Shown: positions 3,335-52,544, counted from the stretch's first letter. The stretch: 64,000 nt of DNA from Patescibacteria group bacterium (GCA_038078555.1 JBBTYQ010000003.1:397-64396), one strand, 5' to 3'. Translations and numbers: made by a program. The notes: a model not told the origin generated them from the letters alone.

Positions 3335-5135
3335 CTTCCTTATTATACATTGATTGACCGATTTTTTGAAGCTCGGAGGAAAGTTCGTTTAATTTTAATT
3401 TAATGGCTTCTAAATCATTTCCGTCCTTGATGGATTTTAAAGCTTCTATTTTTTGATTTACGGAATCTTTTATTTCAGCGCTTATTTTTTCGCCGGCTTC
3501 GCGCAAAGATTTTTCCGCAAGATAAATTGATTGTTCCGCTTGATTTTTTATTTCCACAAGCTCTTTCTTCCTGCGATCTTCTTCCGCGTGAGCCAAAGCT
3601 TCATTTTTTAATTTTTCAACTTCTTCTTTGGAAATTTGAGTGGAGGCTTCAATATGCACCGATTGAATCTTATTTGTAGCTTTGTCTTTAGCGGAGACAT
3701 TTAAGATGCCGTTTGCGTCTATGTCAAACGTCACCTCAACCTGAGGCAAGCCGCGGGGCGACGGCGGAATGCCATCTAAAATAAACCGCCCCAAAGTTTT
3801 GTTATCTAAAGCCATGGGCCGTTCTCCTTGAAGAATATGAATTTCCACTGATGTCTGATTATCGCCGGCAGTAGAAAAAACTTGGGATTTGGCCGTAGGA
3901 ATAGTAGTGTTTTTTTCAATTAACGGAGTAAAAACTCCGCCTAATGTTTCTATGCCCAAAGAAAGCGGCGTAACATCCAAAAGCAAAATATCTTTTATTT
4001 CGCCCTGGAATATTCCCGCTTGCACTGCCGCGCCTATTGCCACAACTTCATCCGGATTAATTCCTTTATGAGGTTCTTTGCCGAAAAATTTTTTAACCGC
4101 TTCTTGGATAGCCGGCATTCTAGTTTGCCCTCCGACTAAAATAAATTCATTAATGTCGGAAACTTTAAGATGAGCCTCGTCAATGGTCTTTTTTATAAGC
4201 TCAATTGATTTAGCAATATAGTCAGTTACAAGCTCTTCAAGTTTTGCCCTCGTCATTTTCATTAAAAAGTGCTTTGGTCCGGCAGCATCAGAGCTGATAT
4301 AGGGAATGTTTATTTCTGTTTCAAACGCGGTAGAAAGTTCGTGTTTTGCCCGCTCAGCCGCTTCTTTAAGCCTTTGAATAGCCAATGGGTCTTTGGAAAT
4401 ATCTATGCCTTCCTGTTTTTTATATTCGGCAACAAGATATTCTATAATTCTTTTATCAAAATCATCTCCGCCTAAATGAGTATCGCCGCCCGTACCTTTG
4501 ACCTCAACCACATCATCGCCGATTTCTAAAATAGAAATATCAAAAGTTCCTCCGCCAAAATCATAAACAACGATTTTTTCGTTTTTCTGCTTGTTTAAGC
4601 CGTAAGCCAAAGCCGCGGCAGTAGGCTCATTGATAATCCGGCGCACTTTTAAGCCGGCAATTTCTCCGGCGTTTTTAGTTGCCTGCCTCTGAGAGTCATC
4701 AAAATAAGCCGGAACGGTAATAACCGCTTCTTCAATTTTCTCGCCCAATTTTGCCTCAGCATCTGTTTTAAGTTTTGCTAAGACCATCGCGGAAATTTCT
4801 TCGGGTTTATACCACCTATCGCCCATTTTCACATCCACTCCGCCCTGATCAGATTCTTTTATATCAAACGGAAACCAAACTTTGTCATGTTGAACTTCTG
4901 GGTCGGAAAATTTCCTACCGATTAATCTTTTTACGGAAAAAATCGTATTTTTCGGATTAACAACCGATTGGCGTTTAGCTAAAACTCCAGCCAACCGTTC
5001 ACCTGACTTGCTTAAAGCAACAACCGAAGGCGTGGTTCTGGCTCCTTCATGATTTTCCAAAATTTTCGGCTCGCCTGCTTCAATTACAGCCATTGCCGAA
5101 TTAGTTGTTCCTAAATCTATACCTAAAATTTTCAT
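3309..5135 (-). CDS. dnaK: Chaperone DnaK (Hsp70)
   Basis: 608 aa with Hsp70 signatures [17 protein letters not shown] and [10 protein letters not shown]. Confidence 0.98.
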
Positions 5136-46086: not shown

Positions 46087-46195
46087 TTACGGCATTAGTT
46101 ATAATAGAAAATAATAATTGTCTTGTCAATAAACAAAAAGCGCCAAAGAATTTCTCTTGGCGCTAATTTAACTTTTTAAGACTTATCATTATCAC

Positions 46196-46372
46196 CTATT
46201 CTTTGAGCAATACCACGTTCATTAAGAATTTTCCGCAATTGGCGCAAATTTTACGCGCTACTATATGTCCTTTCCCGCATTCATTTACAGAAATAAAAAT
46301 ACTGCAGATTCTTTTAATGTGATGGCAATAATTTTCGTCGCATCCGCATTCTTTCGTTTCAGTTTTTTTCAC
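46196..46372 (-). CDS. Small Cys-rich protein (58 aa), paralog 1
   Basis: It has a GTG start 5 nt after AAGGAGG. It translates MKKTETKECGCDENYCHHIKRICSIFISVNECGKGHIVARKICANCGKFLMNVVLLKE. A terminator hairpin follows at about 46143-46170. Confidence 0.5.
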   Translation of the reverse strand: MKKTETKECGCDENYCHHIKRICSIFISVNECGKGHIVARKICANCGKFLMNVVLLKE

Positions 46373-46447: not shown

Positions 46448-46624
46448 TCAACTCCGTTGTTTTCTTTTGTTTTTTGCAATATTCCTTTCGATTGATACTT
46501 TATTTGATAAAAATTTTTTGCAATTAGAACAAAATACTCTAAACTTCATTTTTTCTGAAACAGGCATTCTTTGAAAATAATACGAATGTGAACACACAAT
46601 CCTTATGATTCTTGTAATGCTCAT
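46448..46624 (-). CDS. Small Cys-rich protein (58 aa), paralog 2
   Basis: It has an ATG 5 nt after AAGGAGG. It translates MSITRIIRIVCSHSYYFQRMPVSEKMKFRVFCSNCKKFLSNKVSIERNIAKNKRKQRS. It shares the C-S...C-x-N-C-x-K-F-L core with paralog 1. Confidence 0.5.
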   Translation of the reverse strand: MSITRIIRIVCSHSYYFQRMPVSEKMKFRVFCSNCKKFLSNKVSIERNIAKNKRKQRS

Positions 46625-48758: not shown

Positions 48759-48956
48759 GCTTTGAAACGCTGACATGCCCGTTTTGAAATAAAATTCAAA
48801 ACAGGCCAGCCCCGCAACAAACTTTATTTGTTGCGGGGCTTTTTTATTTTTAAAAATAAAATTTCTAGGATTTTTATAAACCTAAAAATTGACATTTTAG
48901 AAATATTTTCTTATTCTATTTTCAGCTTAATTTAAAACTTAAATAAGGAGACTGTT

Positions 48957-50354
48957 ATGATCAAAGTAGAGCTGATAAACCACGGCGCAATAAACGACGC
49001 AAAACTCATATCTTTTTCTGCAAAAGGTTGTTATCAACCGGAAAAACCGATAATGGGAGAAACCATGGATATTGTCGGAAAATTATTCAAAACCGGCCAC
49101 CACACCACGTTTCAACACGGTTATTTCACTTTCTGGATAGAAGACATTGCCATTTCAGATGTCACTTTCGGCCTGCATCTGGTAAACCCGTTTTACAATA
49201 CGAGCCAGCGCTCCGGAAGATTCTGCGGAAAAATGTTTCAAAATCCCGATTACGAAGAAATTAGCAGTTATATCAAAACATACTGGCCCGAACTCGACGA
49301 AGAACAATTAACTCTAGCTATACATTTTGTCAGAGACGGCATAGTCATATACCAAAAAAATCTTTCTAAGGCCGTTGATTTCGCCAAAGAATTAATCAGG
49401 GAAGAAAGGCCTTTTGCCAGCGAAAAATATATAGACCAAAATGCGCCTAAGTTTGCCCAAGAGCAATTAAGAGTATTCATTCCGACAATATTTCCCACAG
49501 CTCTTACTTATACGGCTAATCTTTCCGCTATCATTGCAATGCACTGCTCCAGCTGGTCTCCGGCTTTAATAGATATCAGCCGAAAAATGATGGATGCCGT
49601 AATTTCGCTTTATCCGGAAACGCTGGAATTAAAGAAGATACTCGAGATTGTAAACGAAGTGAAGCATTCCTCTAAAAACCTCAAGTGGCTTCCGGCAGAA
49701 GATATTTTTCATTTAACCAGCGCTATCCGCTACAACCCTTCCGCAATTCTGTCGCCGAAAGACAAAGATTACAGTTCGAAATTCCGCGATGCAATAATTC
49801 CGCCTCCGGAATTCATGCACCCGATAGACTTATTGCACTTCCATCCGGCTTTTATGGAAAATTCTGTAAGTCGGCTGGAATCAGTTGTAAATATTTCCGT
49901 AGCAACAATGGGTCAAGATCAAAGGCATCGAATGATTTCCCGAGGCAAACCGAGATTTACCGGTGAATTTTATCTGCCACCGATTCCAAGAATGTGCGGT
50001 TTAACCGGCGAAGCGATTGCTTTAATAACAGCGTGGAAATGTCTCTTCAAACAATTGCCAAAATCTCTTGCTTTGGCGCTCGTGCCTTATGGAGCTATGG
50101 TTTCTTACAAAAAATCCGGCTCGCTTAACGCAGTAGCTCATGAATTAAACAAACGCCTCTGCTGGACTGCCCAAGAAGAGATATATCACTCCGCGCTTAA
50201 TTTACGCAAAGAAATATCCGAAAAATGCGGAGCTGACTCGCCTCTGCTTGCGATATTTCCTCCCAGTTGCGTAAGAACCGGCAAATGCGGCGAAGGAGAT
50301 AGATATTGCGGTAGAGATATGAAGAAAGATTGTTTTATTGAAAGAAAAATCTAA
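48957..50354 (+). CDS. thyX: Long ThyX-like (flavin-dependent thymidylate synthase family) protein with two ThyX-like halves and a C-terminal Cys cluster
   Basis: 465 aa. The N half has GHHTTFQHGYFTFWIE...SQRSGRF (the RHR is replaced by LHL). The C half has HFHPAFMEN...QRHRMISRGKPRF. The tail reads CVRTGKCGEGDRYCGRDMKKDC. SD AAGGAG is present. Confidence 0.7.
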   Translation: MIKVELINHGAINDAKLISFSAKGCYQPEKPIMGETMDIVGKLFKTGHHTTFQHGYFTFWIEDIAISDVTFGLHLVNPFYNTSQRSGRFCGKMFQNPDYEEISSYIKTYWPELDEEQLTLAIHFVRDGIVIYQKNLSKAVDFAKELIREERPFASEKYIDQNAPKFAQEQLRVFIPTIFPTALTYTANLSAIIAMHCSSWSPALIDISRKMMDAVISLYPETLELKKILEIVNEVKHSSKNLKWLPAEDIFHLTSAIRYNPSAILSPKDKDYSSKFRDAIIPPPEFMHPIDLLHFHPAFMENSVSRLESVVNISVATMGQDQRHRMISRGKPRFTGEFYLPPIPRMCGLTGEAIALITAWKCLFKQLPKSLALALVPYGAMVSYKKSGSLNAVAHELNKRLCWTAQEEIYHSALNLRKEISEKCGADSPLLAIFPPSCVRTGKCGEGDRYCGRDMKKDCFIERKI

Positions 50355-50495
50355 TCCTAAATCTAAATCGTGCCCGTTTTGAGGTCAAACTTAATCGGGC
50401 ATTTTTATTTAAAGTTATTTGACTTTTTGTAATATTAAAAATAAATTAAAAGCAGCTGATATTTAAAACTTAATAAAAAGAAAGCGGGAGGAAAA

Positions 50496-51602
50496 ATGAA
50501 AAATCGTTTTGGCGCGTTGCCTGACACCGACATTAAATCTTTAATAAGGGCGGGCTTTATAAAGGGAGCCAGAGAAGAAAATATCAATCCGGCCTCATTA
50601 GATCTGGCTGTTTCTGAAGAAACTTACAGACTGGAAGGATTATTTTTGCCGAGAGCCGGAGAAAAAGTTAAAGACCTTTTAAAAGGCGCTGGCGCGAGCC
50701 CTCATGATCTTGAACAGCCTTTGGAACGCAACGTCACCTATTTAGCTAAACTTTATGAAACTCTTGAATTGCCCCAAGGTATTTACGGCTACTGCAATCC
50801 AAAATCGTCAACCGGCAGAAATCACATTCACGCCCGGCTACTGGCTGACGGAGTGCCTCGCTACGACGCCTTAACACCTGCGGGTTATTGCGGAGAACTC
50901 TGGATAGCAATAACGCCGAAATCTTTTTCTATAAAAATAAGCAAAGGATTAACTTTAAACCAGCTAAGACTTTTTAACGGAGATACAAGGCTCGATGAGC
51001 TGGAAATTCAGATAGCGCTAAAAGCCAACGAGCTTCTTTGGGACTATCTGAAGAAAAAACCGATTTTTTATGAGGAGATAAAAATAAAAGACAATGACGG
51101 ATCGCTGATTCTTACTCCTGACCTTAATTCGGAAATTGTCGGGTATGAATGCCGCGGCTCAAATAAAGTTCTGGATTTTTCCAAAAAAGAATTTTACCGA
51201 GCTGATGATTTCTTTGAGCCGATTTTTAAGAAAAATGATTGCATTTATCTTAAAGAGGGTGGCTTTTATATAATCTCCACCAAAGAAGCGGTAGTAGTGC
51301 CGCCTGAATTCGCCTGCGAAATGTGGCCAACAGACCACCGTAGCGGTGAATTCAGAGTGCATTACGCAGGATTCGTCGACCCTGGCTGGGGTTTTTTCAA
51401 AAACGGCGAAATTAAGGGAAATCCCCTAACTCTTGAAGTAAAAGCATACGAAGACTTAATCGTACGCGAAGGACAACCGATAGCTAAAATAAAGTTTGAG
51501 CGCATGATTAGCGCTCCGGAAAAACATTACGGCGAAAAACTTTATTCCAACTATACTCTTCAAAACGGCCCGACGCTTTCCAAACATTTTCTCAGAACTT
51601 AA
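50496..51602 (+). CDS. dcd: Long-form dCTP deaminase-like protein (dUTPase-fold, DCD family)
   Basis: 368 aa with NPKSSTGRN and HYAGFVDPGWG, motifs typical of dCTP deaminase/dUTPase-fold enzymes. SD GGGAGG is present. Confidence 0.7.
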   Translation: MKNRFGALPDTDIKSLIRAGFIKGAREENINPASLDLAVSEETYRLEGLFLPRAGEKVKDLLKGAGASPHDLEQPLERNVTYLAKLYETLELPQGIYGYCNPKSSTGRNHIHARLLADGVPRYDALTPAGYCGELWIAITPKSFSIKISKGLTLNQLRLFNGDTRLDELEIQIALKANELLWDYLKKKPIFYEEIKIKDNDGSLILTPDLNSEIVGYECRGSNKVLDFSKKEFYRADDFFEPIFKKNDCIYLKEGGFYIISTKEAVVVPPEFACEMWPTDHRSGEFRVHYAGFVDPGWGFFKNGEIKGNPLTLEVKAYEDLIVREGQPIAKIKFERMISAPEKHYGEKLYSNYTLQNGPTLSKHFLRT

Positions 51603-51609
51603 ACCTAAG

Positions 51610-51634
51610 GCGGCGCTCTTGCGCCGCTTTTTTT
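51610..51634 (+). terminator. Rho-independent terminator after dcd-like gene
   Basis: A 7-bp GC stem (GCGGCGC / GCGCCGC) with loop TCTT is followed by a T7 run. Confidence 0.8.
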
Positions 51635-51761
51635 AATTATTTTTTCTGAAAACCTAAAAAAATAAATCAGCGAATAAATTTTCAATTGACTTTTTTGTTT
51701 TCTGGGGGCAAACTATTTAATAGTTGATTAATAACTTAATAAAAAGCCTGGGGAGGAAAAA

Positions 51762-52136
51762 ATGAATAAAATTCTTGTTCTATTAAAAACTTTTTTTAAG
51801 AAAAAAAAGCTTAAAATAGTTTTAAGAAAAGAAAGAGGAACATGCCCTTTTTACGGATTTGCCCACGCATCCGGAACCACCAAGTTTTTTGACCAAGGCG
51901 GAAGCCAGTGCGCTCTTATCTTAAAAAGATATGTTTCTTGCAGAATGGAAGGCAAAAGCGATGTCCCGGATTGGAAAAAATGTCATCTTAATAGGGCGAG
52001 AAACCAGAAGACAGTAGAAGATATCATGCAATTTTCTACTATTTTCCCGCAAGAATTCATGCCCGAAAAAAACCATTCTTGGCCAGGCATGAAATTTAAA
52101 ACATGGGTGCGCTATGTAATGAATAACAAAATTTAA
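51762..52136 (+). CDS. Hypothetical 124-aa protein with four Cys
   Basis: SD GGGGAGG is present. The sequence contains ...RGTCPFYGF...GGSQCALILKRYVSCRMEGKSDVPDWKKCHLN.... I recognise no family. It has its own terminator. Confidence 0.6.
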   Translation: MNKILVLLKTFFKKKKLKIVLRKERGTCPFYGFAHASGTTKFFDQGGSQCALILKRYVSCRMEGKSDVPDWKKCHLNRARNQKTVEDIMQFSTIFPQEFMPEKNHSWPGMKFKTWVRYVMNNKI

Positions 52137-52138
52137 CC

Positions 52139-52168
52139 GATTGGGTTGCAATAGCAACCCAATTTTTT
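52139..52168 (+). terminator. Rho-independent terminator
   Basis: A 10-bp stem (ATTGGGTTGC / GCAACCCAAT) with loop AATA is followed by a T7 run. Confidence 0.8.
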
Positions 52169-52277: not shown

Positions 52278-52475
52278 ATGGGTGGCGTACCGGTAAAACA
52301 TCATACGAAATCAAAAGTTGGGAGACGCAGGTCTCATTTAGCCTTGAAACCGGCTCAAATTCACGTTTGCCAAAACTGCCAAAATCCTATTGTTCCTCAT
52401 CGATATTGCGCTAATTGCGGAAATTATAAAAATAAAATCGTTAAAGAACAGAAAATTAAAATAAAGAAGATATGA
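52278..52475 (+). CDS. rpmF: Ribosomal protein L32
   Basis: 65 aa starting GVPVKHHTKSKVGRRRSH, with the CxxC...CxxC zinc-ribbon form. Confidence 0.93.
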   Translation: MGGVPVKHHTKSKVGRRRSHLALKPAQIHVCQNCQNPIVPHRYCANCGNYKNKIVKEQKIKIKKI

Positions 52476-52544
52476 GAAAGAAGATATGAGAAAAGAGGCG
52501 CTTAAAACCTAGTTTCTCATTTCTGATTTTTCAATTCTAACTAA

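Follow-up and report, generated by a model that had tools for sequence, protein, structure and literature searches.

A shared leader element ahead of neighboring thyX-like, dcd-like and four-cysteine protein genes in a Patescibacteria genome

Do three consecutive genes with similar upstream regions form a functional module, and what might the similarity itself signify? The question is raised by a 64-kb window (the whole stretch of DNA analyzed) from the metagenome-assembled genome (MAG) of a Patescibacteria group bacterium. On the plus strand, in which the region is read here, it carries a gene for a protein resembling flavin-dependent thymidylate synthase (ThyX), followed by one for a putative dCTP deaminase (Dcd) and one for an unannotated protein of 124 amino acids (aa), with related sequences just 5' of the Shine-Dalgarno (SD) sequence of each. 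A preliminary description of this DNA had proposed a co-regulated, possibly imported pyrimidine-deoxynucleotide module. The genes, called here thyX-long, dcd-long and the 124-aa gene, are as follows:

48957-50354, plus strand: thyX-long (gene 1), 465 aa, flavin-dependent thymidylate-synthase-like, with two Thy1-like halves
50496-51602, plus strand: dcd-long (gene 2), 368 aa, by homology a two-domain 2'-deoxycytidine 5'-triphosphate deaminase
51762-52136, plus strand: 124-aa gene (gene 3), member of an unannotated four-Cys family

The reading favored here, which we hold on balance to be probable, is that these are three monocistronic units, that Dcd-long and ThyX-long serve dTMP synthesis, and that the leaders share a functional, unstructured, AU-rich element. 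Dcd-long would deaminate dCTP, supplying a deoxyuridine nucleotide, and ThyX-long would methylate dUMP to dTMP, giving a de novo thymidylate route in which most relatives would use dCMP deaminase instead of Dcd; the four-Cys gene would merely adjoin the other two. All three mRNAs would start with the element, or carry it just 5' of a strong SD, where it would function as part of the translation-initiation region, by loading ribosomes or enhancing translation, or else by binding a regulator of translation or transcription. In both cases the three genes would be expressed similarly. The degrees of confidence given to this reading and to its rivals below refer to overlapping claims, and are not meant to sum to one.

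The three leader copies are:

48923-48946, plus strand: thyX leader copy, CAGCTTAATTTAAAACTTAAATAA, starting at about the predicted transcription start and ending at the SD AAGGAG (48945-48950)
50453-50480, plus strand: dcd leader copy, CAGCTGATATTTAAAACTTAATAAAAAG, with the SD GGGAGG at 50486-50491
51722-51746, plus strand: 124-aa leader copy, AGTTGATTAATAACTTAATAAAAAG, with the SD GGGGAGG at 51750-51756

The shared element is about 25 nt long and lies directly 5' of the SD; it can be written CAGCT(T/G)A..TTTAAAACTTAA(A)TAA(AAAG), or in short form AG(C/T)T..TTTAAAACTTAATAAAAAG. The identical 14-mer first remarked on in the dcd and 124-aa leaders, AACTTAATAAAAAG, has exactly two copies in the window, at 50467 and 51733, each followed by GGGAGGAAAAATG or GGGGAGGAAAAAATG, and the related version reported for the thyX leader is present at 48931-48950. 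On the plus strand of the window, a degenerate 12-mer, TTWAWAACTTAA, is confined to the three leaders, where it stands 15-23 nt ahead of the start codons. For an estimate of significance, 62 genes were called crudely and all 1,891 pairs of 100-nt upstream regions were aligned locally. The dcd/124-aa pair scored 39, second of the 1,891 (mean 16.6, standard deviation 3.3) and a value reached in 0 of 2,000 shuffles, and the thyX/dcd pair, with 31, was among the top eight. The leader similarity of the three genes is non-random, and to that extent compatible with the common control first suggested; the conserved three-gene module that was part of the same suggestion was not found, as described below.

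The dcd and 124-aa copies agree at 29 of 34 positions, SD included, and match in spacing as well; this likeness makes it probable that one derives from the other by copying. Another reading would take the similarity to be functionless, a trace of local duplication of a promoter and ribosome-binding-site cassette, combined with the constraints of an AT-rich leader and a strong SD. We consider this unlikely. In its favor, the two genes share a -35 word at near-equal distances (77 and 76 nt) from the start codon, and 14-mers often recur between the intergenic regions of this genome (35 cases vs. 1.2 expected); against it, some 35 nt between the two conserved blocks of the dcd and 124-aa upstream regions are unrelated, which argues that this was not a simple duplication.

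At thyX and dcd the element starts where transcripts would begin from the predicted promoters (a TTGAC box, a 17-nt spacer and a -10 hexamer). The signals that would delimit the transcripts are:

48889-48917, plus strand: thyX promoter-like site, TTGACA, 17-nt spacer, TATTCT (10/12 matches, a consensus match only)
50419-50447, plus strand: dcd promoter-like site, TTGACT, 17-nt spacer, TAAATT
51686-51696, plus strand: 124-aa gene box, TTGACTTTTTT(G), 76 nt before the ATG
50370-50410, plus strand: thyX intrinsic terminator, a hairpin (50370-50402) followed by a U run, dG -16.5 kcal/mol, z -4.6
51607-51630, plus strand: dcd intrinsic terminator, a hairpin followed by a T run
52139-52164, plus strand: 124-aa gene intrinsic terminator, a hairpin followed by a T run

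It had been claimed that each gene has its own TTGAC(A/T) box, strong SD and hairpin terminator, and all of these were found where they had been placed. The boxes lie 68, 77 and 76 nt before the ATGs of thyX, dcd and the 124-aa gene, respectively. By consensus only, thyX and dcd have sigma-70-type hexamer matches, while the 124-aa gene has no good -10 hexamer at 17±1 nt from its box (only CAAACT or AAACTA). Terminators are present at all three genes, that of thyX having been missed by a pattern scan and recovered by folding. Because a promoter-like site and a terminator accompany each gene, they are read here as three separate monocistronic transcription units, probably of housekeeping type. 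The word TTGACTTTTT, at 50419 and 51686, does stand ahead of the dcd and 124-aa ATGs at the near-equal distances first described; with four exact copies and 39 within one mismatch, it is a generic -35-like word and not distinctive.

The leaders fold no better than shuffled sequences (z -0.58, +0.79, +0.80 and +1.26), and had no match in Rfam at gathering score. A riboswitch or attenuator was considered and rejected, there being no stable fold (z -0.6 to +1.3) and no Rfam family. Of the two roles initially offered for the leader, a structured regulatory RNA is therefore discounted, and an operator or other protein-binding site is possible.

Homologous loci in other genomes bear on both function and specificity. 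Across 1.14 Mb searched on both strands, the 17-mer TTTAAAACTTAATAAAA is found exactly at two places only, the dcd leader of the window and the thyX leader of a locus designated L015, whose ThyX is 46% identical to that of the window. The L015 leader, with a score of 39 (z 6.7), ranks highest among 926 upstream regions from 80 loci, the next scoring 29. This near-exact copy would be hard to explain without selection, and counts against a similarity lacking any function. Weaker copies of the element are found ahead of thyX in L009 and of a tmk-thyX-dcd-glyA operon in L037. In an unbiased k-mer count CTTTAAAA was found in 6 of 79 thyX leaders vs. 1 of 745 others; AGYT..TTTAAA, a post hoc pattern, is in 6 of 79 vs. 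6 of 745. The L015 copy occupies a gap of 59 nt between cistrons, after a dCMP deaminase gene and without a TTGAC box, and the lack of such a promoter suggests that it acts on the mRNA, that is, at the RNA level. A leader motif recurring before thyX in distant genomes would be one of few candidate regulatory or translational signals for these uncultured organisms.

Alternatively, a dedicated regulator would recognize the element, as a DNA operator where transcription begins or, in the mRNA, as the target of a translational repressor that might be ThyX itself; the result would be a small regulon for thymidylate synthesis, to which the 124-aa gene was added in this genome. We treat this as a tentative possibility, on the doubtful side. 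It would account for the coincidence of the element with the +1 predicted from the promoters of thyX and dcd, for its confinement within the window to these three genes, for its conservation at the L015 thyX and the weaker copies in L009 and L037, and for the enrichment of its k-mers at thyX leaders. Against it, the element is neither palindromic nor repeated in helical phase, there is no gene for a candidate regulator in the vicinity, most thyX-long loci are without the element, and in another Patescibacterium (L083) a homolog of the 124-aa gene has a similar AU-rich leader and no thymidylate gene nearby. This last case suggests that the motif is not specific to the pathway, and limits what can be claimed for the leader.

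Several of these observations also weigh against the preferred reading of a functional translation-initiation element serving three independent units. The element shows no dyad symmetry, no regulator gene was identified, and it is missing from the ribosomal-protein and chaperone genes of the window, where a general enhancer would be expected. Patterns of the AGYT..TTTAAA type were picked after seeing the data; beyond L015 the cross-genome leader signal is at noise level, and a sequence-only covariance model of the leader gave weak matches outside its training set; most thyX-long loci lack the element. A metagenome scan for an 18-mer gave at least about 120 AT-rich matches, none of them near thymidylate genes among the matches listed. 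By itself the 18-mer is a frequent word in metagenomic DNA of AT-rich composition, a frequency that would equally suit a similarity without function; it is not diagnostic, and the scan is uninformative on specificity. A last reservation concerns the enzyme, ThyX-long being under the TIGR02170 cut-off (50 vs. 88) with its ThyX motif split across the two halves, as set out next.

Gene 1 had been described as ThyX-like, and it is, by homology and predicted fold, a ThyX-type thymidylate synthase of a two-domain long form. The protein scores 62.2 bits against Pfam Thy1 (PF02511; gathering score 24.8) and 50.2 bits against the NCBIfam equivalog TIGR02170, whose cut-off of 87.9 is not reached. Taken alone, the N-terminal half scores 42.3 bits against Thy1 (residues 13-194, E 9e-11) and the C-terminal half 23.8 bits (E 4.5e-5), just under the threshold. 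The two-domain reading is adopted because each half matches Thy1 by itself; a profile-profile comparison of the two halves with hhalign found no similarity between them. An AlphaFold model (pLDDT 80, pTM 0.82) was compared with the PDB by Foldseek, and the best 50 matches listed are all ThyX structures, with probability 1.0 and target TM-scores of 0.46-0.58; the sequences of solved ThyX proteins match weakly (E about 0.006). More than 800 homologs of 440-485 aa were found, mostly unnamed and some named "FAD-dependent thymidylate synthase"; their hosts are Patescibacteria and Rickettsiales-like or alphaproteobacterial MAGs, and the closest match is 56% identical.

The signature known for ThyX proteins is RHRxxS...SxRY within one domain. 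Motif conservation in the long form was followed in 71 full-length sequences, their sources being Patescibacteria and Rickettsiales-like MAGs. The N-terminal half has GHHTxxxH, SQRSGR(F/Y) and AQEQxR, with LHL in place of RHR, and the C-terminal half has QDQRHR and KRxCWxAQEEIY. The signature is thus split, with SQRSGRF at 83-89 in the N-terminal half and RHR at 323-325 in the C-terminal half, each at least 95% conserved. Both this split and the score below the TIGR02170 cut-off make the exact chemistry less than certain; FAD- and CH2-THF-dependent methylation of dUMP is the predicted activity, with indirect support from the tmk, glyA and deaminase neighbors described below. Four cysteines (C402, C438, C444 and C451) are invariant in 71/71 sequences, three of them within a C-terminal PxCxxxGxCxEGxRYCGR motif and C402 separate from it, pointing to a possible metal or Fe-S site. 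The mechanism of ThyX, a drug target, is still debated. The literature search turned up no paper on fused ThyX or on Patescibacteria thymidylate genes, and in many Patescibacteria and uncultured Rickettsiales-like bacteria it is the fused family that appears to provide thymidylate synthase.

A separate observation concerns ribosome binding sites. In the 60 nt upstream of thyX-long in loci L001-L080, the strong SD AAAGGAG is found in 24 of 79 leaders vs. 26 of 745 for other genes, a comparison biased by crude start calls for the latter.

Gene 2 is by homology a two-domain dCTP deaminase, in agreement with its first description. Its DCD_N (PF06559) and DCD_C (PF22569) domains are recognized with E 1.2e-39 and 1.4e-42, the match to PDB 2R9Q from Agrobacterium is full length (E 2.7e-56), and the score against NCBIfam NF005734, 283.7 for a cut-off of 283, is a marginal pass. 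Deamination of dCTP, to dUTP or, in an enzyme of the bifunctional type, to dUMP, is the activity to be expected from its sequence relatives. In E. coli, a dcd mutant is complemented by Dcd2 of Dictyostelium, a protein whose relatives among prokaryotes come mostly from CPR bacteria; the paper gives no domain structure for it (PMC10733785).

Gene neighborhoods were compared for 80 thyX-long genomic loci (L001-L080), counting neighbors within 4 kb:

tmk (thymidylate kinase): 32/80 loci
dCMP deaminase: 25/80 loci
P-loop kinase: 20/80 loci
glyA: 11/80 loci
dcd-long: 4/80 loci
deoC: 4/80 loci
124-aa gene: 0/80 loci

Examples of gene order are tmk-thyX-dcd-glyA (L037), dCMP deaminase-thyX-...-tmk (L015) and dCMP deaminase-kinase-tmk-thyX-deoC (L009). 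These neighborhoods support a thymidylate role for thyX-long and its pairing with a deoxycytidine deaminase, and a route from dCTP or dCMP through dUMP to dTMP, of which the dCTP form had been proposed for the locus, fits them. As judged from such arrangements, the link between thyX and dcd is functional. The usual partner of thyX-long is dCMP deaminase, and dcd-long is a rare one; no tmk, glyA or dCMP deaminase gene occurs anywhere in the 64-kb window. In L015, an open reading frame (ORF) with a GIY-YIG-like motif (YIYVLESLKDQKRYIGYTNNLKKRIEEH) is inserted at 3394-3831 between thyX-long and tmk.

The 124-aa gene has no place in these clusters, and 18 loci (114.7 kb) with homologs of it contain no thyX, dcd or tmk. 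The protein is real and conserved, but the 0/80 count and these 18 loci indicate that it is not a conserved partner in the pathway; the three-gene arrangement is specific to this genome and not a conserved module. Co-occurrence across genomes, proposed at the outset as a check, was not found, and membership of the 124-aa gene in a module is not borne out. It could still be argued that the three genes are a true functional module, with the 124-aa protein as a pathway accessory such as a metal or redox partner of the Cys-cluster ThyX-long. The genes are adjacent and share a leader in this genome, and both proteins have strictly conserved sets of four Cys; set against the counts above, and against homologs that are monocistronic and found in varied contexts including DPANN archaea, this seems highly improbable. 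A more specific form, in which the shared leader reflects true co-regulation and the 124-aa protein serves, in this lineage only, as a metal or redox accessory to an unusual fused ThyX with a metal or Fe-S center at C402/C438/C444/C451, is in our estimation very unlikely. If true, it would mean that thymidylate synthesis in these ultra-small bacteria uses a cofactor arrangement not described for ThyX. In a milder version, the leader would serve as operator or RNA site in a Patescibacteria thymidylate regulon not known so far.

Profile and structure searches, which had been recommended for the 124-aa protein, found a family, and a fold without a match in the PDB or BFVD. A word-indexed search had returned only the protein itself, suggesting an orphan, and this was overturned by an exhaustive HMMER scan with 381 cluster representatives, 118 of them below 1e-10. 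Its homologs are found in Patescibacteria (CPR), DPANN archaea and one phage contig, mostly as single genes in unrelated contexts. The family pattern is RxxCPFYGF...GNQCAL...SPCxME...PxWxxC...FPxEFxP...W..Y, with C28, C60 and C74 invariant and C50 nearly so. No family match was obtained in Pfam, NCBIfam or PHROGs and no sequence match in the PDB; the AlphaFold model is confident (pLDDT 87.7, pTM 0.79), and Foldseek gave no match for it (best E 4.4 in the PDB and 2.6 in BFVD). The protein was initially called uncharacterized, which holds as far as annotated families and folds are concerned, but it is no orphan, being conserved in CPR and DPANN; it is probably a small, conserved, metal-binding four-Cys protein. 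The family combines a confidently folded protein, no known structural relative, and a distribution common to CPR bacteria and DPANN archaea.

Some homologs lie near genes for transcription proteins: a TFIIS-type zinc ribbon (three loci), RNA polymerase Rpb5/H (one) and sigma factors (two), the loci concerned being L082 (5454-6249); L089, L095 and L219; L090/L091; and L217/L218. On the phage contig the homolog overlaps the stop codon of an ECF-sigma-like ORF and is translationally coupled to it; in DPANN archaea it stands beside the TFIIS-type zinc-ribbon protein or the Rpb5/H operon, and in one Patescibacterium it is two genes from rpoD. These are weak hints of a transcription-linked role for the family.

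The block of three genes is flanked by divergent groES/groEL on one side and by rpmF-nusB-rnc-smc on the other. It has also been suggested that it was imported, and in its fullest form this would make the thyX unit, or the whole block, a horizontally acquired island bounded by a 12-bp direct repeat. The repeat exists as described: the 12-mer TGCCCGTTTTGA occurs twice in the window, at 48776-48787 and 50371-50382, flanking thyX. The first copy is in the first hairpin between groES and thyX and the second is the 5' arm of the thyX terminator, so that both are 5' arms of ordinary, different hairpins; and since 119 repeated 12-mers are observed between intergenic regions of this genome, vs. 14 expected from shuffles, the 12-mer is not distinctive. 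The guanine-plus-cytosine (GC) content of thyX-dcd, 41-42.5%, is slightly above the window mean of 37.7%, as had been noted, but the same as that of groEL next door (41.6%) and thus no sign of import, and the 124-aa gene is at 34-38%. No integrase or other mobility gene is present, and thyX-long is widespread and vertically plausible in Patescibacteria. A genomic island or mobile insertion was rejected on the groEL-like composition, the lack of mobility ORFs and the common type of the 12-mer, and we give the idea of an imported module almost no credence.

The hairpins next to groES deserve a description of their own:

48777-48840, plus strand: double hairpin between divergent groES and thyX, dG -37 kcal/mol, z -8.0

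Its second stem (48808-48840) resembles a bidirectional terminator, with a plus-strand T run after the stem. The only Rfam match is sub-threshold (Srn266, 30 bits vs. 63). A small antisense RNA and an insulator are conceivable roles for the structure, near which there is a weak promoter-like site (48712-40).

Other features of the window were recorded in passing. A second intergenic word, (T)TCGCGAATAATGC, has seven sites in both orientations vs. 1.2 expected (29826, 30282, 30757, 35690, 40500, 44736 and 44756), two of them identical over 20 nt; several small genes have it upstream, it resembles a further operator or a motif associated with promoters, and a similar word is found in the Wolfebacteria locus L040, around 4398 on the minus strand. 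At the end of rpmF there is a 14-nt tandem duplication (52463-52490, AAGAAGATATGAGA twice). Between rpsB and groEL are two 58-aa ORFs with CxxC-type Cys pairs (46196-46372 and 46448-46624, minus strand), each accompanied at a short distance by a promoter-like TTGACA (at 46129 and 46689 on the minus strand). The window contains no rRNA gene.

Overall, the finding is largely an ordinary one, a thymidylate gene pair named in public annotation together with a hypothetical protein; NCBI entries from a Patescibacteria group bacterium MAG already name the proteins of the locus. The by-products worth further work are the fused ThyX, the four-Cys fold-orphan family and the recurring thyX leader word.

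Comparison with known systems places each component. For the leader, the nearest likeness would be to the "epsilon" leader of phage T7 gene 10, TTAACTTTAAGAAGGAG, an AU-rich translational enhancer 5' of the SD. The element here is unstructured and AU-rich and stands directly before a strong SD, and its sequence at thyX, TTTAAAACTTAAATAAGGAG, is similar; it differs in that the word is not identical and is absent from other highly expressed genes of the window. ThyX-long shares with classical ThyX (PF02511, TIGR02170; PDB 1O26, 2AF6 and 3N3Y) a Thy1 score above the Pfam threshold, the ThyX fold in its model, the five motifs listed earlier and neighbors such as tmk, glyA and dC(M/T)P deaminase genes. 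It differs in its length, roughly double the usual one, each chain having two Thy1-like halves, and in its split signature, RHR being found only in the C-terminal half and the Ser/Arg/Tyr part only in the N-terminal half; its four invariant Cys are not known from the classical enzymes. Dcd-long has the length and domain order of the 2R9Q-type dCTP deaminases, matching them from end to end, and differs in that it barely passes the NF005734 equivalog cut-off. As in other Patescibacteria clusters for dTMP and dTTP synthesis (L015, L009, L037 and L024), thyX-long here adjoins a gene for a supplier of deoxyuridine nucleotides, the differences being that the supplier is the rarer dcd-long, that each gene has its own terminator, that the usual tmk, glyA and dCMP deaminase genes are not in the window, and that an unrelated 124-aa gene comes next. 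The locus is in this respect a minor variant of the Patescibacteria thymidylate clusters, with both enzymes belonging to known families.

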